Source: Candidatus Thorarchaeota archaeon (GTDB taxonomy: Archaea > Asgardarchaeota > Thorarchaeia > Thorarchaeales > Thorarchaeaceae). From it: a stretch of DNA of 22,323 nucleotides. A program made the translations under genes and the position numbers. Where the stretch lies: NCBI GenBank assembly GCA_046758445.1, contig JBHIAE010000047.1, forward strand, positions 1 to 22,323, written 5' to 3'. This document shows, piece after piece, positions 4,465-22,323 of this stretch; within the stretch, counting starts at the first letter, position 1, and the number at the start of each line of letters is the position of its first letter. The notes beneath the pieces are model-generated. The model was not told where the DNA came from. It worked only from the letters and a program-made list of their open reading frames with translations, and did not search any database.

Positions 4465-4499
4465 CCACATACATTGTGACGTTGGGAGGTATCGAAGAG

Positions 4500-6287: not shown

Positions 6288-6297
6288 AGACCAGTAT

Positions 6298-6331
6298 CAG
6301 GGGGCTCAGGCTCCCTGTTCCATCTTTTTTT
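6298..6331 (+). terminator. Hairpin plus T-tract terminator after aor
   Basis: CAGGGGGC-TCAG-GCTCCCTG stem-loop (6298-6317, one G-U pair) followed by a T7 run at 6325-6331, starting 10 nt after the aor stop. Confidence 0.7.
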
Positions 6332-6382
6332 CTGGGTCCGAAATGAGATACCTTATCTGGCCTAGGCAGGTCACTGATTACA

Positions 6383-6691
6383 ATGATTCGAATCCATCTC
6401 TATGGCTGCTTGCGCGAACTTGTCATTGGCAGTCGCCCTGACGAGGATACTGTTCTAGAACGGAAGACTGTTCCAGGTGAAACCTTCCAAGAACTTGTCA
6501 TGCGTCTAGGCTTGAGTCTTGACGAGATGGGCGATTGTTTCATCAATGGCACACTTGCGAAGCCCGAGGATCCCGTACCAGATGGTGCCCGAGTTGGTCT
6601 CTTTCCCTTCAACATGGTTCTTCTTTGTGGCGGGCAGCACCTGAAAGGGCACGGATACACGAAGACTAATCCTGATGTTGACTACTACTAG
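6383..6691 (+). CDS. MoaD/ThiS-like ubiquitin-fold protein with internal GG and C-terminal extension
   Basis: Beta-grasp signature (IRIHLYGCLRE...GETFQELV..LGL.....FING......V.DGARVGLFP); GG is followed by 18 further residues. Confidence 0.75.
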   Translation: MIRIHLYGCLRELVIGSRPDEDTVLERKTVPGETFQELVMRLGLSLDEMGDCFINGTLAKPEDPVPDGARVGLFPFNMVLLCGGQHLKGHGYTKTNPDVDYY

Positions 6692-6699
6692 GTGGTTGT

Positions 6700-6942
6700 A
6701 TGAAAGTCAATGTGAAGCTTTATGCAACGCTGCAGAAGCTTGCACCCCCCGAGGTTGAGATTGGAGAGGCGTTTGCTGTCGAAATAGACGGGAGCACCAT
6801 CCTCGATTTGTTGAAGCAACTTGGTATCGAGGAAGAGCAGGCTCGCATAGTCATGCTAAATGGTATTCGAGTCAACGACATGTCACAGGAACTCGAATCG
6901 GACGATCTTGTTGTCATGTTTCCTCCGATAGGCGGGGGCTGA
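6700..6942 (+). CDS. moaD: MoaD/ThiS family sulfur carrier (SAMP-like)
   Basis: 80 aa; MKVNVKLYATL...TILDLLKQLGI....IVMLNG....DLVVMFPPIGGG with canonical C-terminal GG; SD-like AGGTGG upstream; typical neighbour of aor. Confidence 0.9.
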   Translation: MKVNVKLYATLQKLAPPEVEIGEAFAVEIDGSTILDLLKQLGIEEEQARIVMLNGIRVNDMSQELESDDLVVMFPPIGGG

Positions 6943-7837: not shown

Positions 7838-8479
7838 CTATACGGCCTTCAAAGCGCGACTCGCCAAGAACGAGCTGATGACCCCCAACATTTCATGGGG
7901 CTGATAGAAGATCGAGTTCCTGTCATATAGAAGGCGAATGCTGGCTGGGAACTCTTCATCTTCGTCCTCAAATATGAGCAGAACTCTTACTCGCGGCAGG
8001 AATGGGACTTCAAACCCTGCATCGCCGTAGTCAACTCTCTTGGCACCAAGACGCTCCAGACCTTGGAACAGTTCCGCCCTATTCTCCAGGAAGGCTGTGG
8101 TCATGACCTTGATGTCCTCCTCATCGAAGGAGAACCTACACGCCCATGAGCCACTGAGCGCGTTGAACTTGACCCATTCGTTTGTCACGCCCTCGTCTTT
8201 GGCCTTGCTGTAATAATAGAGGAATGGAACAAGTCGATTGATGCTGACTTTGGCATCCGCAAGTGTATCTAGGGCTTCACCGGTTCCAAGGTTCACTCTG
8301 ATACCAAGGATGTTCACATGCTTACCGTTGACGCCAAGCCGATCCCTTATGGTCTTGATATCTTCCCCGAAGTTCTCCCAGTTCCAGAAGGCCGAGCTCG
8401 TGTCGAACTCTTCGATATTGAACCTGGCCGCAAGCTCACGTGCGATGCTCATCCAGTACTCAAGAATGTCGTCCGCCAT
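7838..8479 (-). CDS. DUF3786-like protein
   Basis: C-terminal pattern EWVKF..L.G....F.......LGA.....GD......FLPRV.V.L......DEEFPA...LLYD.....Y...E recognised as DUF3786, a family often found near corrinoid/ACS genes. Confidence 0.75.
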   Translation of the reverse strand: MADDILEYWMSIARELAARFNIEEFDTSSAFWNWENFGEDIKTIRDRLGVNGKHVNILGIRVNLGTGEALDTLADAKVSINRLVPFLYYYSKAKDEGVTNEWVKFNALSGSWACRFSFDEEDIKVMTTAFLENRAELFQGLERLGAKRVDYGDAGFEVPFLPRVRVLLIFEDEDEEFPASIRLLYDRNSIFYQPHEMLGVISSFLASRALKAV

Positions 8480-8632: not shown

Positions 8633-9199
8633 ATGGTCACTGCACTCTTCAAGGTCGTTCTCATGGGTGATGGGTCGGTCGGAAAGACAAGCCTTAGGCG
8701 TACATACATGGGAGAAGGTTTCAGAGCCAACTACATGATAACAATAGGCGCCGATTTCGCAGTGAAGAAGATGGAACTAGCGGGAGGACACGACGTAAGC
8801 ATTCAGATCTGGGATCTGGCAGGGCAAGAGCATTTCAAGAGTGTCCGTTCCACTTTCTACAAAGGTGCCCAAGGAACACTCGCAGTCTACTCAACAGTTG
8901 AACGTTCTTCCTTCGATAACATTCCCCACTGGCTGGAAGAATGTTGGACAAATGCAGGCAAGAAGATACCTGTCGTTCTCATTGGCAACAAGATTGACCT
9001 GCGTGACCAGTTCAAGGACAACCCTGTCATGCAACAGACTATTGTCACAACTGAAGAAGGCCAGGCACTTGCGAAGAGAATTGAGGACCGTGGAGTTCAA
9101 ACGAGCTTCCTTGAAACGTCTGCAAAGACAGGTACGAATGTAGAGGCCGCATTCTTGGAACTTGCGATAAAGATACTAGAGGCCGGTGGACTAACCTGA
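8633..9199 (+). CDS. Rab-like small GTPase (Ras superfamily, eukaryotic signature protein)
   Basis: G1 GDGSVGKTS, G2/RabF1 TIGADF, G3 WDLAGQ, RabF3/F4-like HFKSV/FYKGA, G4 NKID, G5 ETSAK; no C-terminal prenylation Cys. Confidence 0.95.
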   Translation: MVTALFKVVLMGDGSVGKTSLRRTYMGEGFRANYMITIGADFAVKKMELAGGHDVSIQIWDLAGQEHFKSVRSTFYKGAQGTLAVYSTVERSSFDNIPHWLEECWTNAGKKIPVVLIGNKIDLRDQFKDNPVMQQTIVTTEEGQALAKRIEDRGVQTSFLETSAKTGTNVEAAFLELAIKILEAGGLT

Positions 9200-9221: not shown

Positions 9222-9611
9222 ATGTCACTGGGTGACTTCCTGTTTCCTCAAGTAGAACTAAAGCTAGTGATTTCTCATTCCTTTGAGACTGATATCGAGT
9301 CTGTTCGCAACAAGGCGTCCAAGGAGTTTCAGAAGCTTGCTGCGAGGATTTCGTTGAGCAAAGGTAATCTACAACGACTTGGACTGGGAGAGGGTGACGC
9401 CGTGAGTGTCGAGTCAATGAGCGGGAGAATTGTGGTTCATGCAATCCCTGATGACAAGTTGGCGGACGACGTAGCAGTCATGCCTCGGTCGCCGTGGGCT
9501 CTCTCCCTTGTTGCCGTGCCTTCAGACGGGGCACCTGTCCAACTTCACGATATCCAAGTAACAGTCACAAAGAGCGAGGACAAGGTCACTTCTTTCGACT
9601 CGATCCTCTAG
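9222..9611 (+). CDS. fwdD: FwdD/FmdD-like molybdopterin-dinucleotide-binding domain protein (divergent)
   Basis: 129 aa, the typical FwdD size; L..LGL.EGD.V.V.S..G..VV.A and P..PWA patterns; lies in the fwdF/fwdG/fwdB neighbourhood. Confidence 0.72.
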   Translation: MSLGDFLFPQVELKLVISHSFETDIESVRNKASKEFQKLAARISLSKGNLQRLGLGEGDAVSVESMSGRIVVHAIPDDKLADDVAVMPRSPWALSLVAVPSDGAPVQLHDIQVTVTKSEDKVTSFDSIL

Positions 9612-10944
9612 TTTCGTTGAACCTCTCAACTACTTCTTTCACTCGCCCCTTCTCGAGTTGTAGCTGAAGTTGAGGATCATTTCTGAGAAGGTCTCTGAGC
9701 GCCTGAGCAGCCTTCATTGCCTGCTTGCGTGCTCCATCCTCAGAGCTCCAAGCCTGTTCTTCCTTAATCCTGACTTGTACCTTCTCACGAATCTTCACCA
9801 CAATGCTCCGCTCAAAGAGACCGCTGGGATCAGGCTCTATGCCAATAACAGCATCAAAGAACAGTCCTCTCGCCTTCTCCCACTTTCGTGCACGTTCGAG
9901 CTCCTCGATATTGTATCCCTCGCGTTTCACTTTGAGAACATCATAGGGACAGGAGTGTTCACATGCACCACAGTAGATGCAGTTGTCGTCGTAGACTGCA
10001 AGCTTCTCAGCTGTGCCCGTAGGATAGATTGACTTCGTTGGGCATATGTTGAAGCAGTTGTTGCAGCCCGTGGGGTCACACTTCTCAAGGTTATTGACGA
10101 TCACTTCCCCAGAGAATGGCTTGGTAACAGTGAGCGCTTCGAACGGACAAATGATGCCACAGAGGCCACATTTCACACATGTTTCATTATCGTGATGGAG
10201 TTGCCCGGTTATCTCAATCTCGCCTATCGTTCGTGGAGTTGACTTTGTGCATTCAACCTCAATTGCTTCATCTGGACATATCTTGGCGCAAAGGCCGCAG
10301 TAGTCACATTCTTCCTCTATGACCTTGATGGCAATCGCAGGTCTGAACTCAGGAGGCTCAGCGGAGTCAGACCAATAGATCTTGATAGCCTTCGGACATA
10401 GCAGCTCACACAGTCCACAGTAAGAGCACTTGTCCTCATCCACCCGAATGCGACCCTCTGCCGACTCTTCGCCCTCATAGATGACAATGTCCTTCTTCTT
10501 GCTTACATTGATATCCACGCTAAGTGATTCCGTTGGACAGACCTTGGCACATAGAAGACACGGGGCGCATTTCTCTTCGTCAATCTCGTGTGTGCCATCA
10601 ATGCGGTTGAACTCATTCACTGCACCTTCGCCCTCGTACGAAGCGTCAAAGGCTCTGAAGACACATGCCGAATCGCAAAGGCCGCAAAACGTGCATAGCT
10701 CTGGATCCACGTTCACAAGTGGTGCATTTTCAATACGCCCAGCGGCAGTCTCCGCAACAGGACCGAGTGTGATTGCCTCCCATGGACATGGCAGGCACAG
10801 GCTGCAACCCACGCACTTCTCGATCTTGTAGTCCAGAGTCTTTTTGAGAAGTGAAGTTTTCCAGACAAACTTCACAGTACCGTCAACAAGGTCCATGGAA
10901 ACGACAGGGTTCTCTCCGATTGTGATGTCATGTCGTTCCATCAT
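9586..10944 (-). CDS. fwdF: FwdF/FmdF-like polyferredoxin (8 predicted [4Fe-4S] motifs)
   Basis: Eight ferredoxin motifs: CVGCSLCLPCP, CTFCGLCDSAC, CAPCLLCAKVCP, CSYCGLCELLCP, CDYCGLCAKICP, CVKCGLCGIICP, CDPTGCNNCFNICP, CIYCGACEHSCP; starts 1 nt after the hdrA stop. Confidence 0.82.
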   Translation of the reverse strand: MMERHDITIGENPVVSMDLVDGTVKFVWKTSLLKKTLDYKIEKCVGCSLCLPCPWEAITLGPVAETAAGRIENAPLVNVDPELCTFCGLCDSACVFRAFDASYEGEGAVNEFNRIDGTHEIDEEKCAPCLLCAKVCPTESLSVDINVSKKKDIVIYEGEESAEGRIRVDEDKCSYCGLCELLCPKAIKIYWSDSAEPPEFRPAIAIKVIEEECDYCGLCAKICPDEAIEVECTKSTPRTIGEIEITGQLHHDNETCVKCGLCGIICPFEALTVTKPFSGEVIVNNLEKCDPTGCNNCFNICPTKSIYPTGTAEKLAVYDDNCIYCGACEHSCPYDVLKVKREGYNIEELERARKWEKARGLFFDAVIGIEPDPSGLFERSIVVKIREKVQVRIKEEQAWSSEDGARKQAMKAAQALRDLLRNDPQLQLQLEKGRVKEVVERFNETRGSSRKK

Positions 10945-10945
10945 T

Positions 10946-13390
10946 TCATCCTCCAGTCGTCCCTTTTGCTCCCGAAGTCTGAACTCTTGTGCTTCTCTCT
11001 ACCATTTCCATACCTAGTGGCCCCAGCTTGGTCACTAGATTGACAAAGTCATTGACCTGTTCGGCGAACTGGTCTGCCTCAGATGCTGAAACACTTCCAA
11101 AGAAGAGGCGTCGTCCATCAATTCCTGCCGCCTCTAGGGCCTCCCCAAGATTGGCTGTCCTACTCATAGCGTATCTGGCACCTGACCGATAGTGACAGTC
11201 TTGAACATGGCAACCCATGACTGCCACTCCGTCCGCACCCTCAGCAAAGGCAGTCAAGAGGGTTTCTGCATTGATACGCCCGGTGCAGGGGACTTGGATA
11301 GGGACGAGGTTAGGGGGATATTTGATTCTGGAGGTGCCTGCCCTGTCAGCAGCGTTGTATGCACACCATCTGCACAGGTAGCCCACAATCGCAGGTCTGA
11401 CCGGGTTGCTCACGACAGCAGTCTTAGTAGCATTAAGCAGTTGCTCTGTCGTAAGGCATGGCAGATCCAGCGCGCCCGACGGACAGGCGGCTGCGCATGC
11501 GCCGCAACCTCTACAGGCTGCTAGACTGATCTGAGGATACTTCTCATGGTCAAAACTGATGGCGTTGGGTGTGCATATTCTCTCACAGAGACGACAGCTT
11601 ATACACAGATCTTCATCAAATGACGGTACGCATGCCTCCGTAATTACGGTACCACTTGTCAGTAGTGTCTTCGCTTTGGACGCAGCAAGACCTGCATGAG
11701 CCACTGTGTCTGCTATGTCTTTAGGTCCCTGAGCGACTCCGGCAAGAAAGACGCCCTTGGTAACAGTGGTACTCGGACCCAGCTTTGGATGTTGTTCCAG
11801 AAAGAATCCGTTTTCATCAAGCGGCGCTCTGAAGAGGTTGGAGATCTCAGCGTTGCCTGGCTCGGAGTCCATGCCCACCATGAGTACAACAAGATCGGTC
11901 TCCATCTCGAGCTGCCTCCTCAGCAGTGTGTCTTCTGCACGTACCGTAGTGTCACCAGACAATGGATCCCGAACGACCTCGCCTATGTTGCCTCGAATGA
12001 AGTTGATGCGATGTTCCTTGGCTGCTCTTTCGTATAGCTCTTCTTGACCCTTTCCGAAAGTCCTCATGTCCGTGTAGAACACGTATGCCTCACAATCAGG
12101 AATCTGTTCCTTGATCTGAACGACCTCTTTGACTGCTGCTGTACAGCAGACCCGGCTGCAGTAGGGTCTCCCAAACCTTTCGGATCGACTTCCGACACAA
12201 AGAGCAAAGACAACGCGTTTTGGTGGTTCTCCATTTGATGGACGTACAAGTCTTCCCCCACTCGGGCCTCCTGGATTAAGCAGCCTCTCTAGTTCAACAG
12301 AAGTGATTACATCAGGGTTCTGTCCATAACCGAGTTCCTCAACGATGCTTGGATTAAACGGTTTGAAACCGGTTGCCAAGACAACGGCACCAAACTCAAT
12401 CGTCTCGGTCACGTCGACTTCATCATATCTGAGTGACTTGGGCTCGCATACTCCTGCACAGGACTGGCATCCAATGCAATTCTCGCTGTCGATAAAAGGT
12501 GCTAGGGGTACAGCATCTACTAGAGGTCTCACCATGGCCTTTCTGTCTCCAAGCCCATAGTTGTACTCATCAGGCACGTCCACGGGGCAAACCTCGATGC
12601 ACCTGTTGCAGCCCGTGCAGGTATCGATGTCTACGAACCTAGCGTTTTGCCTCAAGGTCACCCTGTAGTTTCCTACTCCTCCCCTAACGCCAAGAACGTC
12701 AGTCAAGGTCATTATTCGAATCTTGGGGTGCCTAGCCACCCTTGTCATCATTGGCCCAAGGATACAGATGCCACAGTCGAAGGTCGGGAACAGCTTGTCC
12801 CACTTTGCCATGTGCCCACCCAAGAAGCCCTCCTTCTCCACGATGACAGTTTCGACCCCGGCGTCCGCCATCTCGACCGCTGCAGTCATTCCTGCGACAC
12901 CTCCGCCGATGACAAGGCCTCTCTGAACAACAGGAATAGTATGAGCCTGAATTACCTGGGATGCGCCCACATTGGCCAATCCTGTGTCTATTATGGCTGC
13001 AGCCTTTGCAGTCGCAGAGGCAGGATCATCATAGTGGACCCAGCTACACTGTTCCCTAATGTTTGCCATATGGAGATGACCAGGGTCAATTCCTGCTTCT
13101 CTCACAGCATCGGAAAAGAGTTCCCAGTGGAGGCCAGGTGAACAACCTGCAATGACCACTCTCTCGGCTTTGCTCTTCTTGATAGCCCCAACCAGGTCGT
13201 AGACTCCTTGCTCTGAGCAGAGATGGTCGTCTACCTCAACTAGGGCAATCTTCATTGATTCATACTTCTTTCTGAGAAACTCAACATCGATGGTATCGGC
13301 GACGTTCGAGCCGCATCGGCACAGGAAGACTGCAGTTCTATCATCTTCCTTCTTCTTCCTGCCTTTCTTCTTGCGACTCACTGTTTCCAC
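10946..13390 (-). CDS. hdrA: Heterodisulfide reductase subunit A fused to a C-terminal MvhD ([2Fe-2S]) domain
   Basis: CRCGSN/HLCS/GCSP/NIREQCSWVH N-terminal domain, FAD motif IGGGVAG, FPTFDCGICIL, inserted ferredoxin pair, CVGSR..YCSRVCC, GVAQGPKDI, C-terminal ferredoxin pair, then MvhD motifs CRWCAYNAAD, VPCTGR, GADGV..MGCH..DCHY, SASEA..F. Confidence 0.95.
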   Translation of the reverse strand: METVSRKKKGRKKKEDDRTAVFLCRCGSNVADTIDVEFLRKKYESMKIALVEVDDHLCSEQGVYDLVGAIKKSKAERVVIAGCSPGLHWELFSDAVREAGIDPGHLHMANIREQCSWVHYDDPASATAKAAAIIDTGLANVGASQVIQAHTIPVVQRGLVIGGGVAGMTAAVEMADAGVETVIVEKEGFLGGHMAKWDKLFPTFDCGICILGPMMTRVARHPKIRIMTLTDVLGVRGGVGNYRVTLRQNARFVDIDTCTGCNRCIEVCPVDVPDEYNYGLGDRKAMVRPLVDAVPLAPFIDSENCIGCQSCAGVCEPKSLRYDEVDVTETIEFGAVVLATGFKPFNPSIVEELGYGQNPDVITSVELERLLNPGGPSGGRLVRPSNGEPPKRVVFALCVGSRSERFGRPYCSRVCCTAAVKEVVQIKEQIPDCEAYVFYTDMRTFGKGQEELYERAAKEHRINFIRGNIGEVVRDPLSGDTTVRAEDTLLRRQLEMETDLVVLMVGMDSEPGNAEISNLFRAPLDENGFFLEQHPKLGPSTTVTKGVFLAGVAQGPKDIADTVAHAGLAASKAKTLLTSGTVITEACVPSFDEDLCISCRLCERICTPNAISFDHEKYPQISLAACRGCGACAAACPSGALDLPCLTTEQLLNATKTAVVSNPVRPAIVGYLCRWCAYNAADRAGTSRIKYPPNLVPIQVPCTGRINAETLLTAFAEGADGVAVMGCHVQDCHYRSGARYAMSRTANLGEALEAAGIDGRRLFFGSVSASEADQFAEQVNDFVNLVTKLGPLGMEMVERSTRVQTSGAKGTTGG

Positions 13391-13404
13391 CTAGGCGTAT
13401 CGAA

Positions 13405-13518
13405 AGATAATGATGTCCTGATTATCTGATTGTTTGTGTTACTCGGGTCGTTCAACTTGTCCCGGTTCATCTGATTGAGTATAAGTGTGACCATTGGGGA
13501 TTTGTGCCATCTGCACAA
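13405..13518. promoter_or_regulatory. Divergent promoter region with two inverted repeats (candidate operators)
   Basis: AGATAAT-N9-ATTATCT (13405-13427) and TTGTGC-N5-GCACAA (13502-13518) in the 223-nt gap between divergent hdrA and fwdG-like genes. Confidence 0.4.
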
Positions 13519-13613
13519 GTGCACCCACCGGATGATTCTTGTGGAAATAAGGAAGACTTGCCCTTGTAGTTCGGCGAATCGCTCCAGAGCAAGTACATGG
13601 GAGACACATCAAG

Positions 13614-14072
13614 TTGAAACTGAACCCTATGGAGTTGTACAACCTACTTCCAAAGACCAACTGCAGGCTTTGTGAACCAAAGACATGCATGGCCTTTGCC
13701 ACAAAGCTGGCCTTGGGAGATGTGTTGCCTGATGACTGTCCCCCTCTTCTCGAGCCCGGATTCGAAACGAACCTCTCTAAGATTCGAAACATGGTAGCTC
13801 CTCTCCAGTCGACAGAAACCACTGGGATCAGACTGGAGGAAGACAAGTGCACAGGTTGTGGTAACTGTGTTGTCGTCTGTCCAGTTGATGTCGCCGCAGA
13901 ACCGCCGACGAGCGTAGGAAAAGCCGCAATGAGTGAGGCAACGGTCTTCAGAGTGGAGAATGGTATCTCGAAGATAATCAACCTAGAGAAGTGCCGACGT
14001 TTTCCGCCGGACAGGCTAAACTGTCGAGTCTGTGAGCAATACTGCTGCACTGATGCAATAGAGATCTGGTAG
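13614..14072 (+). CDS. fwdG: FwdG-like ferredoxin with N-terminal FeS (RnfB/CdhE-type) domain
   Basis: LPKTNCRLCEPKTCMAFA...DCPPL FeS domain plus CTGCGNCVVVCP and C......NCRVCEQYC dicluster; directly upstream of fwdB. Start is TTG 13614 or ATG 13629. Confidence 0.7.
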   Translation: MKLNPMELYNLLPKTNCRLCEPKTCMAFATKLALGDVLPDDCPPLLEPGFETNLSKIRNMVAPLQSTETTGIRLEEDKCTGCGNCVVVCPVDVAAEPPTSVGKAAMSEATVFRVENGISKIINLEKCRRFPPDRLNCRVCEQYCCTDAIEIW

Positions 14073-14081
14073 GTGAACCAC

Positions 14082-15371
14082 ATGGAGGAGATGGTCTGTA
14101 CTGGATGTTCCCTGTTGTGTGATGACGTAGCTGCTTCAGAAGAAGGCGGTGTAGTAAGTTCGCTTGGGTTCTGTCGATTGGGACATGTGCACTTGGAGTC
14201 AGCAGCCGAGCATGCTGAAGCATCGGGTGTAGTTCGTGAGGGCAAGAAGCTGAACACTGTATCAGTGAATGATGCCATTACAAAGGCTGCAGACATGCTG
14301 GTTTCAGGTGAGCGCGTTCTACTCTATGGATGGTCACACTCTACAGATGAAACCGTAGAGGAAGGACTTGACCTGGCCACTACACTCGGAGGCTTCTTCG
14401 ACAGCAATGCTAGCATGGCTATGGCCCAGTCACTATCTCATGAGATTCACTCCATGAAGTTGGGTATCGACCTTGAATATGTTCGGAACAATGGTGAGTT
14501 TGTGATCTACTGGGGTTCAGACCCGACTGAGAGTAGTCACAGGCACCCAAGTAGATTTGCTGTTCTGCCAAGAGGTGAGAAGATACCGGAGGGTATTGAG
14601 AGCAGGACCATTGGTGTAGTTGACATCCGGGAAACAGAGACTATGAAGATGGCAAATCACCGGATCATCATTCCTTCCGGGTCTGACGCCGAGCTTCTCA
14701 ATGCGATATCTGCAGAGGTATCCGGCGATTCTTCTATCACCGGGCCAGTGGCCGGAGTGGCACCAACTGAGCTACTTGGCCTTGTGAGAGGACTCCAGAA
14801 GTCAGACTGTACTGTCATCTTCTATGGCACAGGGATCATGAACTCGAAGCATTTTGGAAGCAATCTGGACAGTCTGTCTGGACTAGTGAAGGCTCTCAGA
14901 AGATCTGGTAAGGAGGCATATGCACTCCCAATGTCACATGACAGCAACATCATGGGTGCAATCAAGACTTCCAATGATGCTACAGGATCGCCTGCAACAT
15001 TTGACTATGCATCTGGAAGTCCCGGTGCCAGTTCCAACTCAACTGCCCTTCAGAAACTAGTCGCAGGGGAGTTTGATTCTTCCCTCGTGGTAGGATGCGA
15101 TTCATTGGCAGAAATGCCTGGTCCAGCAGCAAGGGCACTGGCCAGCACGAACCTAGTATATGTGGGTCGGCCAGGAGGACTCACAGAGAGGAAGGCGGCC
15201 GTGTCAATCTTCACTACCGAGGACATATTGACTGGCGCAGGGACGATGCACAGGTCTGACTTCGTGGAGGTTGGGATGAAGTCTTTGGGCACTCGCATAA
15301 AGGGACCTTTGACGCAGCTAGAGGCTCTTAAGAAGATTCACGAGAAGGTCCGCCAGGGTAGCAAGGAGTAA
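14082..15371 (+). CDS. fwdB: FwdB/FmdB-like formylmethanofuran dehydrogenase subunit B homologue, predicted catalytically inactive
   Basis: CTGCSLLCDD...CRLG Fe-S motif, LLYGWS, V.N....VIYWG.DP....RH.SRF, VVDIRET.T...A, GT.HR.D motifs. ATG 14082 lies 5 nt after SD-like AGGTGA (ORF track start GTG 14073). The metal-ligand Cys is absent. Confidence 0.88.
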   Translation: MEEMVCTGCSLLCDDVAASEEGGVVSSLGFCRLGHVHLESAAEHAEASGVVREGKKLNTVSVNDAITKAADMLVSGERVLLYGWSHSTDETVEEGLDLATTLGGFFDSNASMAMAQSLSHEIHSMKLGIDLEYVRNNGEFVIYWGSDPTESSHRHPSRFAVLPRGEKIPEGIESRTIGVVDIRETETMKMANHRIIIPSGSDAELLNAISAEVSGDSSITGPVAGVAPTELLGLVRGLQKSDCTVIFYGTGIMNSKHFGSNLDSLSGLVKALRRSGKEAYALPMSHDSNIMGAIKTSNDATGSPATFDYASGSPGASSNSTALQKLVAGEFDSSLVVGCDSLAEMPGPAARALASTNLVYVGRPGGLTERKAAVSIFTTEDILTGAGTMHRSDFVEVGMKSLGTRIKGPLTQLEALKKIHEKVRQGSKE

Positions 15372-15392
15372 CAATCTTGGAGTCGAAACACA

Positions 15393-16190
15393 ATGAAGAT
15401 CGCAGTCGCTGGTAAAGGTGGAGTAGGCAAGACAACAGTCGCTGGAACTCTGGCAAGATTGCTGGGACAAGATGGCCTCAAGATCCTTGCTGTTGATGCT
15501 GACCCAAGCTACACGCTTTGGTCTGCACTTGGCATTCCTGCTGAGGAGGCGGAGAAGATTGTTCCATTGACTGACAATGAAGAGCTCTTGCAGGAGCGTA
15601 TGGAGATTGAGGGTGCGGGTTCATACAGGAGCATCTTCAAGCTGAACCCAAAGGTCGACGACCTTGCAGATAAGTTTGCAATTCAGGGTCCGGACAATGT
15701 GACGTTGCTGGTGGCTGGTACTGTTGACGTTGGTGATCAAGGGTGCATGTGCCCGTCAGCAACACTACTCAAGGCATTAATGCGTCATCTCGTTCTTGGA
15801 AGTGACGAAGCATTCGTGATGGACATGGATGCAGGCGTAGAGAATCTCGGTCGAGGAACCACCAGGGGAATTGACGCACTCTTAGTAGTCGCAGAACCAG
15901 GTCGAAGGTCTCTGAACATCCTGTCCAAGATAAAGAAACTCGCAACAGACATCGATGTGGGTCGGATACTTGCCGTAGGCAACAAGGTAGACGGTCCAGA
16001 GGATGAGGACATGATTCGACAGAGAGTTGAGGCTGAAGGGATATCACTCCTCGGTTTGGTCCCACTGGACAACTCTGTCAAAGAAGCAGACAGGAAGGGA
16101 ATAGCGCCGATTGACCTAGACCCGAACTCTACCGGGATGGTCGCTCTGCGCGACATCAAGGACCGCCTCGTCCAGGAAGTCGCAGTCTGA
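15393..16190 (+). CDS. cooC: CooC/AcsF nickel-insertion ATPase for CODH/ACS
   Basis: MKIAVAGKGGVGKTT deviant Walker A, VDADP, GCMCP Ni-binding CxC, DMDAGVENLGRG, VGNK; directly upstream of cdhA. Confidence 0.92.
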   Translation: MKIAVAGKGGVGKTTVAGTLARLLGQDGLKILAVDADPSYTLWSALGIPAEEAEKIVPLTDNEELLQERMEIEGAGSYRSIFKLNPKVDDLADKFAIQGPDNVTLLVAGTVDVGDQGCMCPSATLLKALMRHLVLGSDEAFVMDMDAGVENLGRGTTRGIDALLVVAEPGRRSLNILSKIKKLATDIDVGRILAVGNKVDGPEDEDMIRQRVEAEGISLLGLVPLDNSVKEADRKGIAPIDLDPNSTGMVALRDIKDRLVQEVAV

Positions 16191-16283
16191 AGGCCCAAGA
16201 CTATGGTTACATCCTGAAACATTTCGTTTATCTGCGGTTAACGACTGACCTAGCTCAGTTCTGGTAACTTTCGTGGCCGATTC

Positions 16284-16297
16284 ATAAGCTTATTATG
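16284..16297 (+). promoter_or_regulatory. Putative internal promoter (TATA-like) upstream of cdhA
   Basis: AT-rich TTATTAT overlapping palindrome ATAAGCTTAT (16284-16293), about 50 nt upstream of the cdhA ATG in a 154-nt intergenic gap. Confidence 0.35.
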
Positions 16298-16344
16298 CTA
16301 CAACTGGTGACGCGAGAGTACGAGCCACAGGGTTTGAATGCAAT

Positions 16345-18687
16345 ATGAAGAAGAAGGTACACTTCAAAGCTGATGAAGCTAGGACAGGCCTAGGCGTATT
16401 CAAGAACCTAGAAGTCAGCATCGGCACTATTGTCGATGACGAGTGGGATGCGCCAATGGGTCCAACCCCTTTGCCTGGACCTACTGCTCTCCGCTCGTGG
16501 GACCACAAACTTCTATCCAGATATCATCCATCCTATATGCCGTATTGTCAGGTCTGTTGCTTATGCACTTTCGGAAAATGCGATCTCACTGGCGACAAGA
16601 AGGGTGCATGCGGACTGAACATGAAAGGTCAACAGGCCCGGATTGTTCTCACTGCCGCTAACATGGGCTGCTCAGCACACCTTGCACATGCACGACATCT
16701 TGTAGATCATTTGACAGGAGAATATGGCCCCGGCGCAGAACTGATTCAGGGACCGGGGACGGAGATTCATGCTCCTGTTTCACGTCTTGTCACAGGAATG
16801 CGTCCTAGGACCCTTCAAGATGCAGGTGTAATCTTGGACTATTGCGAAACGCAGCTAGCTCACACACTGTCTGCTACAGCAACTGGACAAGAAGGAAGTT
16901 GGCTGGACTTTGAGAGCAAAGTGCTCCATACCGGAATGATCGACCAGTTGAGTATGGAGATTGCTGACTTAGCTCAGGTGTCAACTCTGGGCTTCCCCCA
17001 GGCCGACCCTGATGCACCTCTGGTCGAAGCTGGCTTGGGGATGATGGACAAGAAGAAAGCTGGCATCTTGGCGATAGGGCACAATGTTTTGTATGCTGCA
17101 TCAGTAACCGACTACATTACTGAGAATGATCTTAATGATAAGGTCGAATTGGGGGGAATCTGCTGCACAGCTTGGGACATAACTCGACGCGACGCTAGTG
17201 CCAAGGTCATCGGACCAATCTCATATCAACTCAGATTTGTAAGAAGTGGCATGGCTGATGTCATAATCGTCGATGCACAATGCATCCGAACCGATATCGT
17301 TGAGGAAGCTCAAAAGGTCAAGGCCGTTGTCATATCCACTACTGACAAATCTGTACTCGGATTACCTGACAGGACAGATGATCCTGTCGATGAAATTGCA
17401 GAAGACTTGGTTTCCTACAGAAGCCCTGGTGCTCACATAGCCGACACACGCAAGGTTGGTGAAGTTGCTGCCAAAGTGGCGATAGCTCTTCATCCGATAA
17501 GAAAGAAGAAGAGGATTCTGCCGAGCAAGGCGAAGATCAAGAAGATGGCCGAATCCTGCAAGAAATGCATGGAGTGTGTTAGGAGCTGTCCAAATGACCA
17601 GCCTGTTCAGGAAGCCGTTCTTGCAGCCGCGGTTGGCAATTATGAGCCTCTCAGAGAAGTATACCATAATTGCATTGGCTGTGCACGCTGTGAATCTGCC
17701 TGTCCTAATGAGTACGATCTCCATGGCTGGATGGTAGTAGCAGCAATGGACGAATGCAAGAATGAGAAGTATGTTCTCCGAACTGGGCGAGGAGCAATAC
17801 AGGATACAGAGATTCGGAGTGTTGGTCAGCCAATTGTGTTTGGTGAGATACCTGGAGTCATTGCTCATGTTGGCTGCGCCAACTATCCCGGTGGGGGAAA
17901 AGATGTACACGACATGGCAGAGGAGTTTGCGAAGAGAAGATACATCATTGTCACATCCGGCTGCGCAGCAATGTCGGCAGGGCAAGTGAAGGATGAGAAT
18001 GGGCAGTCTATTTATGAACGCCGCGGAGGCGCTTTCGATGCGGGAAATGTAGTTAATGTTGGCTCATGCGTTTCGAATTCGCATATTGCAGGCGCCGCCA
18101 TCAAGATTGCCGCTATTTTCGCAAAAAGGAATTTGCGAGGCAACTACGCAGAGATTGCAGACTATATTCACAACCGAGTTGGCGCTGTGGGTATCTCATG
18201 GGGCGCCATGTCACAGAAAGCTGCGTCAATTGCAGCTGGATTCTGGAGGCTCGGAGTGCCTGTGATAGTTGGCCCTCATGGATCCAAGTATCGTAGAATG
18301 CTTCTTGGAAGAGCCGACAGAGAGAAGGATTGGGTTGTCTGGGACGCCCGTACGGGTGAACGAATGCAGACCGCCCCTGGTCCAGAACATCTCTTCTATG
18401 CAGCTGAAACCGTGGATGAAGCCAATGTGTTGACTGCAAAGCTCTGTCTAAGACCCAATGACACCAGCAAAGGTCGCTCAATCAAGCTGAGTCACTATAT
18501 AGACATCCATGAGAAATCTTATGGCTACTTCCCAGAAGATGTCTGGACTTACATCAGACGTGATTCTGACATTCCAATCACTCTGAAGGACAAGATACTG
18601 GCTCAGATGAAGGAGAACAAATGGAAGGAGCGGAAGATTCCAGACCCGACGCTCCTCAAGGAGCAGGTAATTGGAGGTGGTGCCTAA
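16345..18687 (+). CDS. cdhA: CO dehydrogenase/acetyl-CoA synthase (ACDS) alpha subunit
   Basis: PMGPTP.P, CQVCCLCTFGKC..GACG, GHN, GICCT, DAQC, two extra ferredoxin motifs (CKKCMECVRSCP, CIGCARCESACP), GCANY, SGC, GSCVSN, WGAMSQKA, PDPT C-terminus. Confidence 0.97.
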   Translation: MKKKVHFKADEARTGLGVFKNLEVSIGTIVDDEWDAPMGPTPLPGPTALRSWDHKLLSRYHPSYMPYCQVCCLCTFGKCDLTGDKKGACGLNMKGQQARIVLTAANMGCSAHLAHARHLVDHLTGEYGPGAELIQGPGTEIHAPVSRLVTGMRPRTLQDAGVILDYCETQLAHTLSATATGQEGSWLDFESKVLHTGMIDQLSMEIADLAQVSTLGFPQADPDAPLVEAGLGMMDKKKAGILAIGHNVLYAASVTDYITENDLNDKVELGGICCTAWDITRRDASAKVIGPISYQLRFVRSGMADVIIVDAQCIRTDIVEEAQKVKAVVISTTDKSVLGLPDRTDDPVDEIAEDLVSYRSPGAHIADTRKVGEVAAKVAIALHPIRKKKRILPSKAKIKKMAESCKKCMECVRSCPNDQPVQEAVLAAAVGNYEPLREVYHNCIGCARCESACPNEYDLHGWMVVAAMDECKNEKYVLRTGRGAIQDTEIRSVGQPIVFGEIPGVIAHVGCANYPGGGKDVHDMAEEFAKRRYIIVTSGCAAMSAGQVKDENGQSIYERRGGAFDAGNVVNVGSCVSNSHIAGAAIKIAAIFAKRNLRGNYAEIADYIHNRVGAVGISWGAMSQKAASIAAGFWRLGVPVIVGPHGSKYRRMLLGRADREKDWVVWDARTGERMQTAPGPEHLFYAAETVDEANVLTAKLCLRPNDTSKGRSIKLSHYIDIHEKSYGYFPEDVWTYIRRDSDIPITLKDKILAQMKENKWKERKIPDPTLLKEQVIGGGA

Positions 18688-19232
18688 TGGTCATGCGACC
18701 AGTTCCATGGCAGACAGGTGAGATATGCGGTCCAGAGAGTGCAAAGTCCCTCACGAAAGCCACTCAACTTCAGAGATCTTTCAGACAGACAAAGAAACCA
18801 CTGCTGATTGTGGGATCTGAAGCTGTCAATGAGAAGCACAATGAGGGCGACATGATTGACTATGCGATTGCATTGTCAAAAGCTGGGAAGATGCCTGTTA
18901 TTGCTACCGGAGGTGCAATCAAGGCTTTTATCAGCAAGGGCTTTGGGGGTGCAAAGTCCATGGGTGCTATGGAATTAGCACTCTACCTCCAAGACGAAAC
19001 ATGGACAGGCCCTCAAGAGAAGGGCCCTCACGACCTTGTCCTCGTGTATGGAATCCCATACTATATGCAGTGGACACTGTTATCCGCAACAATGAACTTC
19101 GGGACCCACTTGACGACAATCTCCCTGGCGCGCCACTATCAACCACATGCAGATTGGTCTTTCCCGAACATGAAGGAGAAGCAGTGGCACGAGATTCTAG
19201 ATGAGATTCTAGAGTTTGTAGGAGGAAAGTAG
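18687..19232 (+). CDS. cdhB: ACDS epsilon subunit
   Basis: PWQ.....GP, KKPLLIVG, L.D..W.G....G.HDLV...G.PYY....LS, QPHADWSFPN; ATG 18687 overlaps the cdhA TAA (TAATG) and follows GGAGGTGG, so it is preferred over 18621. Confidence 0.93.
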   Translation: MVMRPVPWQTGEICGPESAKSLTKATQLQRSFRQTKKPLLIVGSEAVNEKHNEGDMIDYAIALSKAGKMPVIATGGAIKAFISKGFGGAKSMGAMELALYLQDETWTGPQEKGPHDLVLVYGIPYYMQWTLLSATMNFGTHLTTISLARHYQPHADWSFPNMKEKQWHEILDEILEFVGGK

Positions 19233-19233
19233 A

Positions 19234-20643
19234 ATGTCTTTCGAAGATATCCCGGTAGACGTAGGCGTCGTCTACGAAGGTGAACGAGTAAGAGGCAAAG
19301 ACATGTTTGTCGAGCTCGGTGGACCAAAGATAGAGAAGAAGTTCGAGTTGGCACTGGCACGTGAGATGGACCAGATTGACGATGAGAAGGTCACCATTAT
19401 TGGGCCAGATCTCAAGGACATGGATGAAGGAAGCTACCATCCCTTTGGCATTCTTGTTGAGGTGGCCGGAGAAGACATCGAGCCAGATCTCGAAGGTGTT
19501 GTCGAGCGGCGAATCCACGAGTACGTGAACTTCGTAGAAGGCATGATGCACCTCAACCAGAGATACGACATCTGGATCCGCCTCAGCAAGAGGTCCTACG
19601 GTAAGGGCTTCAACACCTTGGAACACCTGGGGAAAGTCCTGATTCGACTCTTCAAGAGCGAGATGAATATCATCGAGAAGATACAGGTTACGTTCTTGAC
19701 CGACCCCGAGAAGGTCGCCGAACGATACGATGAAGCCATCAACAGGTACAATGAGCGAGATGCGAGAGCGAGAGGTCTCAGTGACGCCGACGTGGATACA
19801 TTCTACGGCTGTTCTCTCTGCCAGTCATTTGCTCCGACTCACGTGTGCATGATAACTCCTCAGAGGTATGCGAACTGTGGGGCAATCAGTTGGTTTGACG
19901 GACGAGCAGCTGCGCGCGTTGATCCTAAAGGACCCCTGTATGCCATTCCAAAGGGTGACGTAATAGACGAATTTCGTGGTGAGTACACTGGAGTGAATCA
20001 GGTCTATGCTGAGAAGTCGCTCGGGAAGGTGACATCTGTGGCTCTCTATAGTGCATTTGAGAAACCCCACACAAGCTGCGGCTGCTTTGAAGCCATAGCA
20101 TTCGTGATCCCGGAAGTGGACGGACTTGGAGTTGTTCACAGAGACTTCAAAGGCGAGACTGTCAACGGACTTCCCTTCTCTAGCATGGCTGACTCCACGG
20201 CCGGAGGTCGCCAGGTACCGGGCTTCCACGGTCTCTCGATTGAGTACATGAGGTCCCCACGATTTCTACAAGTTGATGGTGGGTGGAATAGGATTGTCTG
20301 GTTGCCAGACTCAGTGAAGCAGCGTGTCTATGAATTCATGCCGGAGGACATCCGTGACAAGATTCCGACAGAGAATGAGGTCATGTCAATTGCAGACCTT
20401 AAGACATACTTGAAGCAGGAGAATCATCCAGTCGTAGAACGCTGGGTGGAACTGGAAGAAGAGGAAACGACGGCTCTTGCGGAAGTCGCTGAGGGTAGTC
20501 AAGACTACGTCACTGTTCCTGGAGACCTGACTGCAATGGTGGGCGGTGTCGGTGGAGGTCTTGAGATCATCTTCAAGAACGCGAAGATATACGCCGAGAA
20601 AGTCATCATTCGCAAGACAGGCAAGGGTGACAAGAAGAAATGA
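19234..20643 (+). CDS. cdhC: ACDS beta subunit (acetyl-CoA synthase)
   Basis: YEGERVR...ELGG, ERRIH...EG.MHLNQR, A-cluster ligands CSLCQSFAPTHVC...CGA and HTSCGCFE, GGWNRIVWLP, C-terminal IIFKNAKIYAEKVII. Confidence 0.97.
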   Translation: MSFEDIPVDVGVVYEGERVRGKDMFVELGGPKIEKKFELALAREMDQIDDEKVTIIGPDLKDMDEGSYHPFGILVEVAGEDIEPDLEGVVERRIHEYVNFVEGMMHLNQRYDIWIRLSKRSYGKGFNTLEHLGKVLIRLFKSEMNIIEKIQVTFLTDPEKVAERYDEAINRYNERDARARGLSDADVDTFYGCSLCQSFAPTHVCMITPQRYANCGAISWFDGRAAARVDPKGPLYAIPKGDVIDEFRGEYTGVNQVYAEKSLGKVTSVALYSAFEKPHTSCGCFEAIAFVIPEVDGLGVVHRDFKGETVNGLPFSSMADSTAGGRQVPGFHGLSIEYMRSPRFLQVDGGWNRIVWLPDSVKQRVYEFMPEDIRDKIPTENEVMSIADLKTYLKQENHPVVERWVELEEEETTALAEVAEGSQDYVTVPGDLTAMVGGVGGGLEIIFKNAKIYAEKVIIRKTGKGDKKK

Positions 20644-21833
20644 CATCAGAGGATGACGAGAGAGGACAATCATTGGACGACATCTTCGGCGATTTCGCTG
20701 AGCTCGAGCTGGAGAATGTTTCCATTGAGGTCGATGAGCTGAGGATTGCTCTTCGTCCCATGGTCCAGAGAATGGCACAGGCAGCAGCTAGGGCTGCGAT
20801 AGAGATGCCGAAGTCCCTAATACCTTCCTCATTCAAGGCCCCCCTCGGTGAGTATCCCGGAACAATCCGTGAGATCACCATCGGAGCCACAAAGAAGGAC
20901 GGTGGGTCTCGAAGCAACTCTGTGACAATCGGGGGGCACACGGCACCAGCCTGGGATCTGTTCCAGTCGCCCCCCAAGAACCTACCGGTGATTGCCGCTG
21001 ACGTCTTCGATATGCCAATCTCCCTCGCAAAGGCCGTGAAGACACACTACAGGGAAGTAATGGAGGACCCTGCAGAGTGGGCAAGGCTCTGTGTTGACAA
21101 GTTTGGTGCAGACCTCATTACAATACATTTGATCAGCACAGATCGACAGATTCGTGACACATCCCCTGGAGAAGCTGCAAAGACTGTTGAGGAAGTGCTT
21201 CAGGCTGTGAAGGTGCCAGTGCTCATTGGTTCAGCGGGAGACCCGGAGAAGGATGGACCAGTCTTGGCAAAGGCCGCAGAGGTCTGCGAGGGTGAGAGGA
21301 CACTGCTTTGTTCAGCGACTGTGGATGTCTATGAACCAGTTGCTCAGGCGGCCAAGAAGCATGATCAGGTAGTCCTCTCTTGGACATCACTTGATATCAA
21401 TCAGCAGAAGGAGTTGAACCGTAGGCTCATAGACTGGCTTAGACCTGATCAGATCGTGATTGATCCGACGACCGCGGCCCTAGGCTATGGTCTCGAGTAT
21501 GCCTTCACGATGATGCAGAGAATGCGGTTGGCAGGCCTTCTTGGCGATGAGGAGCTACAGTACCCGATTAGCTCTGGCACTACGAATGCATGGGCCGCCA
21601 GAGAGGCATGGCTGAAGGCACCGGAGCTCGGTCCACGAGAGCTGAGAGGTCCCATCTGGGAGAGCGTCACAGCACTTTCCTTGCTACTCGCTGGTAACGA
21701 TTTGTTCATGATGATGCACCCTGCAGCCATTAAGACAGTACACGACCTGGTAGGCTGGTTGCGCGAACGACGACCAATCCCCGGTGAGGAGTATGCAGAC
21801 TGGACTATGATGTCCATTCCGGAGGAAACGTGA
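20640..21833 (+). CDS. cdhD: ACDS delta subunit (corrinoid Fe-S protein small subunit)
   Basis: IGAT..DGG.R...VTIGG, FGADLITIHLISTD, G.PEKD, DINQQKELNR, DPTTAALGYGLEY, AWAAREAW, MMMHP; ATGA overlap with cdhC. Confidence 0.96.
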   Translation: MTSEDDERGQSLDDIFGDFAELELENVSIEVDELRIALRPMVQRMAQAAARAAIEMPKSLIPSSFKAPLGEYPGTIREITIGATKKDGGSRSNSVTIGGHTAPAWDLFQSPPKNLPVIAADVFDMPISLAKAVKTHYREVMEDPAEWARLCVDKFGADLITIHLISTDRQIRDTSPGEAAKTVEEVLQAVKVPVLIGSAGDPEKDGPVLAKAAEVCEGERTLLCSATVDVYEPVAQAAKKHDQVVLSWTSLDINQQKELNRRLIDWLRPDQIVIDPTTAALGYGLEYAFTMMQRMRLAGLLGDEELQYPISSGTTNAWAAREAWLKAPELGPRELRGPIWESVTALSLLLAGNDLFMMMHPAAIKTVHDLVGWLRERRPIPGEEYADWTMMSIPEET

Positions 21834-22323
21834 TGGTAAAGCTTGCAGGTCCCTTGGACATCTATCCACTTCTCCCAGGCACCAACTGCGAGCTGTGCGG
21901 AGAAGCTAACTGCATGGCATTCGCAACCAAACTTGCGGAGTATACTGTGAAACTGTCTGCGTGCACCCCACTCTTTGAGGAAACTCAATACGCCAAGAAG
22001 CTGACCAGGCTGGAGGATCTGATTCGTCCAGCCGTCCGAGAAGTAACAATCGGTGTTGGTGCGAAAGCAGCGTCGATAGGCGGGAAGCTGGTTCTCTACA
22101 GACACGACCTACGATACACGAATCCAGTTGCCTTCTTCATTGACATTGCCGACAATCTTGACTCGGAGGCGTTGTCACAGAGGGTCAAGGCAATCGAGGA
22201 ATGGACTTACGTATACATCGGACAGAATCTACGGTTGGACGGCATAGCCCTGAGAGGCGTATCGCAGGACCCCAAGACATTCGCCAAGGCAGCAAAGCAG
22301 GTGTCCAAGCTTACAGACTGGCC
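21833..22323 (+). CDS. cdhE: ACDS gamma subunit (corrinoid Fe-S protein large subunit), 3'-truncated by the window edge
   Basis: Not in the ORF track (no stop in window). ATG 21833 overlaps the cdhD TGA; translation MVKLAGPLDIYPLLPGTNCELCGEANCMAFATKLAEY...ACTPL...PAVREVTIG...IGGKLVLYRHD...NP. Confidence 0.95.
   Translation, partial: MVKLAGPLDIYPLLPGTNCELCGEANCMAFATKLAEYTVKLSACTPLFEETQYAKKLTRLEDLIRPAVREVTIGVGAKAASIGGKLVLYRHDLRYTNPVAFFIDIADNLDSEALSQRVKAIEEWTYVYIGQNLRLDGIALRGVSQDPKTFAKAAKQVSKLTDW

Follow-up and report, generated by a model that had tools for sequence, protein, structure and literature searches.

A Fwd-Hdr-type redox gene set with degenerate FwdB and FwdD linked to the CODH/ACS genes of Thorarchaeota

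What does a HdrA-polyferredoxin wire of the Fwd-Hdr type connect to when the metal site at its far end has been lost? The question is raised by a contig of Candidatus Thorarchaeota archaeon (JBHIAE010000047.1, contig C47 of genome G000; all 22,323 bp of it are referred to here as the window), in which open reading frame (ORF) calling and Pfam and NCBIfam scans of the translations place genes for five Fwd/Hdr-type proteins, HdrA-MvhD, FwdF, FwdG, FwdB* and FwdD*, together beside cooC and the genes of carbon monoxide dehydrogenase/acetyl-CoA synthase (CODH/ACS); the five are encoded together in relatives as well. Asterisks denote paralogues with degenerate FwdB or FwdD active-site or cap motifs. 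Loss of the W/Mo site of FwdB, which we infer from the protein sequence, would mean that the wire exchanges electrons with another partner, and the only conserved candidate for that partner appears to be CODH/ACS. We give an even chance to the reading that the five proteins are a redox module of Fwd-Hdr ancestry which, its FwdBD site lost, would be dedicated to CODH/ACS and carry low-potential electrons between the flavin of HdrA and CdhA.

Gene content and the FwdBD pair

The HdrA-MvhD fusion (814 aa; 10946-13390, reverse strand) matches HdrA of PDB 5ODC_A over residues 15-652 (E 7.7e-176) with its cluster-binding cysteine motifs in register, and MvhD chains in the PDB over residues 665-794, which form a C-terminal [2Fe-2S] domain (Pfam FlpD 1.3e-43). 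Its HdrA part is full length, with all cluster motifs, the FAD domain and every feature of a bifurcating HdrA, and it aligns to positions 1-776 of the 777 in the NCBIfam HdrA2 model (NF040770) at 880 bits, under the cut-off of 1100. Its stop is separated by a single base (10945) from the start of fwdF (9586-10944, reverse strand), which encodes a 452 aa FwdF-type polyferredoxin. This protein has eight CxxCxxCxxxC(P) [4Fe-4S] motifs, read in the translation, scores 223 bits against NCBIfam FwdF (NF042909), under the cut-off of 375, and aligns over residues 29-358 to 5T5I_F (E 3.9e-47), after which follows a charged C-terminal extension of ~95 aa. An in-frame TAG in the fwdF of genomes G368, G369, G378 and G379 proved to be merely an earlier stop codon that the aligner had read through. 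Convergent with fwdF, and overlapping its 3' end by 26 nt, is the gene for FwdD* (129 aa; 9222-9611, forward strand), a degenerate FwdD-like beta-barrel cap (Pfam Molydop_binding E 2.6e-9).

Divergent from hdrA-mvhD, across an intergenic region of ~223-238 bp (13391-13628, from the ORF coordinates), a forward-strand series begins with a long fwdG (13614-14072, likely ATG at 13629), followed at a gap of 0 nt by fwdB* (14073-15371) and, 21 nt further on, by a gene for a CooC-type Ni-insertion ATPase (15393-16190; Pfam CbiA/ParA/NifH-type P-loop). The series continues on the same strand with all five subunits of the acetyl-CoA decarbonylase/synthase (ACDS): CdhA, the CODH alpha subunit (16345-18687; full length, 1073 bits against the TIGR00314 equivalog cut-off of 781); CdhB, epsilon (18621-19232; Pfam CO_dh 8.5e-24); CdhC, the acetyl-CoA synthase beta subunit (19234-20643; Pfam CdhC 3.4e-64, ACS_CODH_B_C 8.4e-78); CdhD, delta (20640-21833; Pfam CdhD 1.4e-63); and CdhE, the gamma or corrinoid Fe-S subunit, of which the contig end leaves only the 5' part (21830-22323; Pfam FeS 1.8e-11, CdhD 2.7e-22). 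The Pfam and NCBIfam scans find no hdrB, hdrC, mvhA/G, fwdA or fwdC within the window. The original prediction, made from the window's letters, had placed every one of these genes correctly, together with the one-base coupling, the divergent arrangement and the absences. It had also pointed to two extra ferredoxin motifs in CdhA; these are no special trait, since the archaeal CdhA model (TIGR00314) includes them as standard.

The protein it called FwdG is FwdG-like in its C-terminal half and longer than that name implies (147-152 aa; Pfam FeS 5.4e-11 plus Fer4). Residues 71-148 are a FwdG-type 2x[4Fe-4S] ferredoxin (9SFI_U 7.3e-11; 5T5I_G 8.3e-8), and residues 1-65 are an additional PF04060 Fe-S domain, bringing the cluster count to three. 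This N-terminus resembles those of CdhE, the corrinoid iron-sulfur protein (CFeSP), and of RnfB, and has matches to the ACDS gamma N-terminus (E 3.4e-16), to CFeSP 2H9A_A over residues 3-48 and, by BLASTP, to the N-terminus of the window's own CdhE (E 1e-14).

FwdB* (432 aa) scores 267.8 bits against TIGR03129, below the cut-off of 327.8, and the other copy in the genome, on contig C27, scores 545. Alignment to 5T5I_B, and also to 8RJA_B, locates the damage: the motif SVCHGPS of 5T5I_B reads SMAMAQS (Cys118 to Ala, His119 to Met) and PMRGHYN reads PMSHDSN (Arg288 to Ser), and a motif table finds Cys118, His119 and Arg288 missing throughout the clade of Thorarchaeota and Hermodarchaeota FwdBs. 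The [4Fe-4S] cysteines C9, C12, C16 and C34 (CxxCxxxC...C) are kept and are invariant throughout the loci compared. There is no in-frame TGA in the window's fwdB* gene. An AlphaFold2 model (pLDDT 76.6, pTM 0.80) retains the whole fold, with a Foldseek TM of 0.87 to FwdB structures (8RJA_B, 5T5I, 7BKB_H) and FhcB and NuoG as the next matches. FwdD*, which scores 41 bits against NCBIfam FwdD (cut-off 175), has lost its pterin-cap motifs alongside FwdB*: in a comparison that leaves out a canonical FwdD row, the motifs RTxEQG, PWAN and LKG are degraded only in Thorarchaeota and Hermodarchaeota, and are kept in the relatives from Bathyarchaeia, Korarchaeia and Baldrarchaeota. As to the claim that FwdB is catalytically dead with all Fe-S motifs intact, the alignment and the clade-wide motifs support the loss of the catalytic residues and the invariance of the Fe-S motifs. 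The catalytic site has probably been lost, and the pterin probably with it; this latter loss must be regarded as not proven, because many conserved FwdB columns survive in FwdB*.

Synteny and co-inheritance with CODH/ACS

Homologues were surveyed with FwdB* as the query against 400 genomes from the phylum, the hits being fetched with their flanks, and by a pattern scan with the clade alignment over 185,579 species genomes, which together gave ~100 loci. As far as each contig reaches, all 31 intact Thorarchaeota loci (L025-L055) share the genes, their order and their orientation, and the same order is found at 17 of 17 loci in Hermodarchaeota, so that the gene order, whose lack of conservation would have spoken against the original prediction, is strongly conserved. 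In both groups cooC directly follows FwdB*. In the Hermodarchaeota loci unrelated genes separate fwdF from hdrA, and cooC from cdhA. Those between fwdF and hdrA-mvhD include ORFs of 456-565 aa (two, of 456 and 565 aa, at L076:3655-6803, and one at L063:4684-6066) that have no Pfam match, and whose look-alikes in the Atlas are of beta-propeller or cell-surface type (best score 0.92), ruling them out as redox partners.

Beyond these two groups the genes are rearranged and still adjoin cdh. Baldrarchaeota locus L079 is one co-directional operon of long FwdG, FwdB, HdrA-MvhD, FwdF, FwdD, an HdrC-like ferredoxin, a CCG-domain HdrB, CooC, CdhA and CdhB; in the Thermoproteota loci L059 (B14_G2) and L071 (Kor3), cdhDCBA directly adjoins FwdD and the rest of the module; and on the Bathyarchaeia contig L077 the order is long FwdG, FwdB and then CdhA, B and C. 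All of these rearranged forms keep the Cys-His pair of FwdB except L077. The link between module and cdh recurs in at least four gene arrangements and in two phyla.

Presence tables for FwdB*, FwdF and CdhC in the Thorarchaeota family sample (86 genomes, 16 genera) confine each of the three to the same 5 genera (g1, g3, g6, g9, g12). A tally from the three tables gives 36 genomes with all three genes, 37 with none and 13 mixed, the mixed ones being incomplete metagenome-assembled genomes (estimated completeness <=87%) apart from one single-contig chromosome. Five genomes of three other genera (g2, g7, g13) hold a canonical fwdD-B-A operon at 61-65% identity, and FwdF and CdhC occur in no genome of those genera, which argues that the module travels with CODH/ACS and not with the normal Fwd. 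The single-contig exception is the complete chromosome of G369 (CP070658.1; locus L057, 7669-11056), which has no CdhC. Its HdrA-MvhD is truncated to residues 15-499, its FwdB* ends near residue 186, an intact long FwdG stands between the two truncated genes and fwdF lies 130 kb away; here the loss of cdh goes with a broken module. Across the phylum-wide sample, every family that holds a FwdF-like gene also holds CdhC.

We envisage the ancestor as a Fwd-Hdr-type complex in which HdrA was wired through FwdF and FwdG to the metal site of FwdBD, and propose that this site was lost in the lineage of Thorarchaeota and Hermodarchaeota, leaving a module of the HdrA-MvhD flavoprotein, the eight-cluster FwdF, the three-cluster long FwdG, FwdB* and FwdD*. 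FwdB*D* would then serve as a scaffold or relay with one [4Fe-4S] cluster that holds FwdG and FwdF on HdrA, as an analogy with the cofactor-less relatives of the same fold, FhcB and the C-terminal domain of NuoG, suggests, and the module would carry low-potential electrons between the HdrA flavin and CdhA. These may run in either of two directions: electrons derived from bifurcation could drive CO2 reduction to CO, or electrons derived from the carbonyl group could pass to HdrA, on the model of Methanosarcina, whose HdrA2B2C2 receives electrons from CODH/ACS. The mid-potential partner could be F420, a disulfide reached via hdrBC genes encoded elsewhere, or something else; F420 at the fused HdrA is a plausible choice, since the genome has Mer and no FrhB-type module and since there is a precedent in HdrA2. 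The scaffold role, the loss of the pterin, the electron path, its direction and physical contact with ACDS are all points that we infer.

Several observations weigh against such a dedicated role. No cdh gene lies within 10 kb of the Bathyarchaeia (Thermoproteota) copies of the module at L067, L074 and L081. In f22, the largest Asgard family sampled, CdhC is found in 116 of 135 genomes and a FwdF-like gene in 0 of 135 at E 1e-60, so CODH/ACS does not require the module. The PF04060-bearing long FwdG also occurs in Fwd sets of Jordarchaeia, with a Cys-His FwdB in a fwdD-fwdA-fwdG-fwdB operon, and of Methanothrix, with FwdB in a fwdG-fwdB-fwdD set, so that it is not an ACDS-specific adaptor. Bearing on the presumed loss of the pterin, the conserved columns that survive in FwdB* include WG..P, R157/H158, D184/R186, G252/G254 and R394/D396. 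Lastly, co-inheritance is expected for genes that lie in one block, and related genomes are non-independent samples. To judge from these distributions the module is a lineage-specific accessory of CODH/ACS-bearing archaea and not a requirement of the enzyme. The same pairing of long FwdG with FwdB in Methanothrix, Jordarchaeia and others weakens a further idea that we had considered, namely that long FwdG is an ACDS-specific mimic of the CdhE domain.

Such exceptions are what one would expect if the module were a generic ferredoxin-level Hdr complex, working between soluble ferredoxin and F420 or a disulfide (the latter via HdrBC encoded elsewhere), which stands beside cdh only through a shared Wood-Ljungdahl regulon and has no direct wire to ACDS. 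Module-less Asgard lineages such as f22 commonly have CODH/ACS, and the Thermoproteota copies away from cdh fit equally well. The genome itself offers the parts, having an HdrA2-HdrC-HdrB operon and ~17 CCG-domain proteins, and Mer (444 bits), whose presence makes it probable that F420 is in use; the HdrA2 of M. acetivorans oxidises F420H2 (PMC5296606). Against a merely regulatory neighbourhood stand the recurrence of the cdh link in its different gene arrangements across two phyla, the absence of the module from every Thorarchaeota genus without CODH/ACS, including genera that keep the methyl-branch Fwd, and its breakage in the complete chromosome that lacks cdh. We consider this alternative possible and rather unlikely.

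FwdB evolution and the rest of the genome

Is FwdB*D* perhaps still an enzyme, holding a Mo/W-pterin with no protein ligand, as in arsenite oxidase, or with Glu as the ligand in Hermodarchaeota, whose reaction feeds or drains HdrA? MopB enzymes without an amino-acid ligand do exist (AioA and IdrA; PMC10100899), and the persistence of the fold and of many conserved columns is in keeping with the idea. The FwdB subfamily as a whole adds to it. FwdBs paired with a long FwdG have the N-terminal motif CTGCSLLCDD, as against CPFCGCLCDD together with PMRGHYN in canonical FwdBs, and none of them (type-2 loci L059-L103) has Arg288, reading PM[S/A/V]GHYN instead; the type-2 copies of Methanothrix and Jordarchaeia likewise lack Arg288, and that of Methanothrix reads CQG, not CHG. 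Because Arg288 was absent from the HdrA-linked FwdB clade from the outset, also in members that retain Cys-His, the chemistry of this clade may always have differed from CO2 reduction, and the chemistry of the entire type-2 subfamily may, on these motifs, differ from the canonical one.

The Thorarchaeota forms themselves argue otherwise. At the ligand position they have G or A and, next to it, no fixed residue (AM, GL, GP, GA and others), and residues that vary this freely are as expected without constraint; in Hermodarchaeota the Cys-His position reads EY. Among 60 FwdB columns that are >=90% conserved across 16 Cys-His FwdBs, Thorarchaeota retain 36 and Hermodarchaeota 48, the Thorarchaeota FwdB* having lost 24 of the 60 and carrying a deletion near residue 307-311, and the cap motifs of FwdD decay in step. 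In a maximum-likelihood FwdB tree the HdrA-linked forms are one clade (SH-aLRT 100), within which Thorarchaeota and Hermodarchaeota are sisters (98), nested among the Cys-His forms of Bathyarchaeia, Kor3 and Baldrarchaeota, with a long stem branch (0.71) to the Thorarchaeota clade. Further losses of the cysteine, independent of that in Thorarchaeota and Hermodarchaeota, occurred in a Bathyarchaeia lineage (L077, reading YY) and in other type-2 lineages; in L077 the metal ligand disappeared outside Asgard. We judge a retained enzymatic function improbable. The L077 contig (CAZAJK010000052.1, 3-7169) has its long FwdG and YY FwdB ~650 nt upstream of cdhABC.

The genome was assembled from a hydrothermal-vent metagenome; a search for sequencing runs containing this DNA gave only three DNA runs, all of one hydrothermal-vent study that may be the source sample, and listed no RNA run. 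The remainder of the genome (92.7% complete; negatives hold for the queries used) was inventoried for partners. Its canonical FwdB lies in a fwdD-fwdB-fwdA operon that is broken by contig ends (the starts of C27 and C32), and fwdC is on C2, beside mch and ftr. The canonical fwdA is itself split over the two ends, with the N-terminal 184 aa at C27:1-554 and the C-terminal 296 aa at C32:1-891, and the contigs probably join there. Contig C1 encodes a second HdrA2-like fusion (1015 bits) followed by hdrC and hdrB, and further HdrA paralogues and five MvhD domains are found besides the CCG-domain proteins. With respect to Fwd-Hdr set membership, HdrB and HdrC are missing from the window and present in the Baldrarchaeota version, and the hdrC-hdrB pair on C1 follows another HdrA2-like gene. 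Neither a [NiFe] hydrogenase large subunit over cut-off, nor an FrhB/FdhB domain, nor McrA was found in the 92.7% complete genome. The first two negatives mean that the usual donor partners that dock on MvhD were not found, and the third suggests that the organism is probably not a methanogen, in agreement with the original prediction.

A second FwdF-like gene is likewise not found in the genome, the window copy being the sole one, and the canonical fwdD-B-A and fwdC loci have neither FwdF nor FwdG of their own. The HdrA-FwdF-FwdG wire might then serve the canonical FwdABCD encoded elsewhere, as in the Hdr-Fwd supercomplexes of methanogens, with FwdB*D* a mere vestige. A complete Fwd elsewhere that accounts for FwdF and FwdG had been named as something that would undo the proposal of a rewired system; such a set exists (C27/C32 and C2) and does not account for them, because the genomes of g2, g7 and g13 have the canonical operon and no FwdF. 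FwdB* and FwdD* have moreover been kept across the radiation of Thorarchaeota and Hermodarchaeota with intact Fe-S motifs, unlike a vestige, and we regard service to the canonical Fwd as very improbable. That the whole set is a decaying remnant without present function, as the lost catalytic residues, the long stem branch and the one broken copy might suggest, is hardly credible and already disfavoured by the open frames, Fe-S cysteines and gene order kept in five Thorarchaeota genera, in Hermodarchaeota and beyond, and by identities to the window copies of 62-95% for FwdF and 65-95% for HdrA-MvhD across Thorarchaeota loci and genomes.

The rest of the window lies upstream of FwdD*. It begins with a gene for a LarC-like protein (1-1344) and PolB (1363-3639, reverse strand), followed by AOR (4476-6287) and two small MoaD-like ORFs (6383-6691, 6700-6942), a DUF3786 gene (7838-8479, reverse strand; Pfam DUF3786 2.8e-24) and a gene for a Ras-family small GTPase (8633-9199, forward strand; Pfam Ras E 6.4e-48). 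Upstream of the module, DUF3786 is conserved as a neighbour at nearly all Thorarchaeota loci (58-75% identity). The GTPase gene shares the strand of FwdD* and precedes it by 22 nt, a position peculiar to loci of the window's genus (L025, L026, L030, L031, L034, L036, L055); in other Thorarchaeota genera no GTPase lies between DUF3786 and FwdD*. The block of AOR and two small ORFs (4476-6942) between PolB and DUF3786 occurs in this genome only, and looks like a recent insertion because the close relatives L030 and L031 run from PolB to DUF3786 without it. AOR, which had been suggested as an electron partner, is accordingly not syntenic in relatives, and was rejected as a partner of the module for want of a conserved neighbourhood.

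Known systems and implications for CODH/ACS

Three known systems bear on what is new here. In the methanogen Hdr-Fmd/Fwd complexes of known structure, low-potential electrons from bifurcation pass from HdrA to the polyferredoxin, FwdG, the FwdB cluster and finally the W/Mo site (PDB 7BKB, 9SFI, 9SW6; PMC13580544, PMC13518236). The HdrA, MvhD, FmdF/FwdF, FwdG, FwdB and FwdD of these supercomplexes are all homologous to window proteins, but the supercomplexes have HdrBC, FwdA/C, a donor (Mvh or Fdh) and a working W/Mo site as well. The same sources call the Asgard FmdF groups uncharacterised and do not expect them to form the same architectures; the supercomplex review extends the term uncharacterised to FmdF groups outside Class I methanogens, Methanomicrobiales and Methanocellales, and derives the FmdF of Methanomicrobiales from Asgard or Bathyarchaeales.

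Closer in gene content is the 'Fwd-Hdr' cluster of the cultured methanogen Methanonezhaarchaeia strain YNP3N, described in December 2025, whose FwdBD is read as a formate-oxidising donor and proposed to be electronically coupled to Hdr (Kohtz et al., Sci Adv 2025, PMC12700198). It too is a second FwdBD set with FwdF, FwdG and Hdr genes, apart from the catalytic FwdABCD operon, and it has the same seven genes, hdrC and hdrB included, as the Baldrarchaeota operon L079. There, however, FwdBD is presumed active and feeds heterodisulfide and ferredoxin reduction in a methanogen, whereas here the metal ligand, the His and the Arg are gone, hdrBC lie outside the cluster, no McrA was found and the set is fixed upstream of cooC-cdhABCDE.

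The third system is that of M. acetivorans, in which fwdG2B2D2 has been named and a HdrA-MvhD fusion gene stands in an operon with a polyferredoxin gene (hdrA1-pfd in PMC2838876, hdrA2 in PMC5296606). On acetate, where the electrons come from CODH/ACS, hdrA-pfd transcript levels rise (PMC2838876); CODH/ACS electrons reach HdrA2B2C2 through ferredoxin, and the recombinant polyferredoxin was inactive (PMC5296606). The likeness lies in a FwdG-FwdB-FwdD set without FwdA or FwdC, and in the operonic pairing of the fusion gene with a polyferredoxin gene; the Methanothrix loci have the same order of long FwdG, FwdB and FwdD as fwdG2B2D2. In Methanosarcina, by contrast, the two sets are at separate loci unlinked to cdh, and FwdB2 keeps the cysteine at the ligand position.

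Proteins of the FwdB/MopB fold that have no Mo/W ligand and act as structural subunits are known as well, namely FhcB of the Fhc complex (PDB 6S6Y), the C-terminal domain of NuoG, and a MopB protein without Cys118 ('Molybdop') encoded in hdrABC-mvhD-fdhB clusters of ANME-2/3 and Methanosarcinales (PMC12054007). They belong to other clades than FwdB* and have other partners, and unlike these scaffolds FwdB*, from which the pterin is presumably absent, still has the [4Fe-4S] site at its N-terminus, and FwdG, FwdD and FwdF as partners. The original prediction had called the architecture undescribed, which holds in part: the parent set of FwdBD, FwdF, FwdG and HdrABC is known (PMC12700198), as are parts named in Methanosarcina (PMC2838876), and the novelty lies in finding, in non-methanogenic Asgard archaea, a form stripped of its catalytic residues and in fixed linkage with cooC-cdhABCDE. 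Our literature search found no paper on the stripped form or its cdh link in Asgard archaea, and does not exclude that one exists.

For annotation, the consequence is that anyone reconstructing the metabolism of these lineages should leave the ~430 aa gene out of the CO2 reductases, whether it carries the JGI label 'formylmethanofuran dehydrogenase subunit B' or the NCBI label 'hypothetical protein'. For the biology, a dedicated redox module can be carried one step further, to a claim that we make only tentatively: the module may dock on ACDS to form an Hdr-(pseudo-Fwd)-CODH/ACS supercomplex, in which a protein-bound Fe-S wire, bypassing free ferredoxin, would let flavin-based bifurcation at HdrA drive the C-cluster's reduction of CO2 to CO, or would carry the reverse process. 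If true, this would be the carbonyl-branch counterpart of the Hdr-Fwd machine of methanogens, in non-methanogenic Asgard archaea and Bathyarchaeia. The module also bears on fwdG2B2D2 and hdrA-pfd, genes of Methanosarcinales that are still unexplained. How non-methanogens with a Wood-Ljungdahl pathway, such as Thorarchaeota, Hermodarchaeota, Bathyarchaeia and Korarchaeia, gain or dispose of the low-potential electrons of CODH/ACS is unsettled, and a HdrA-polyferredoxin module inherited with cdh is a concrete, testable candidate for that task.

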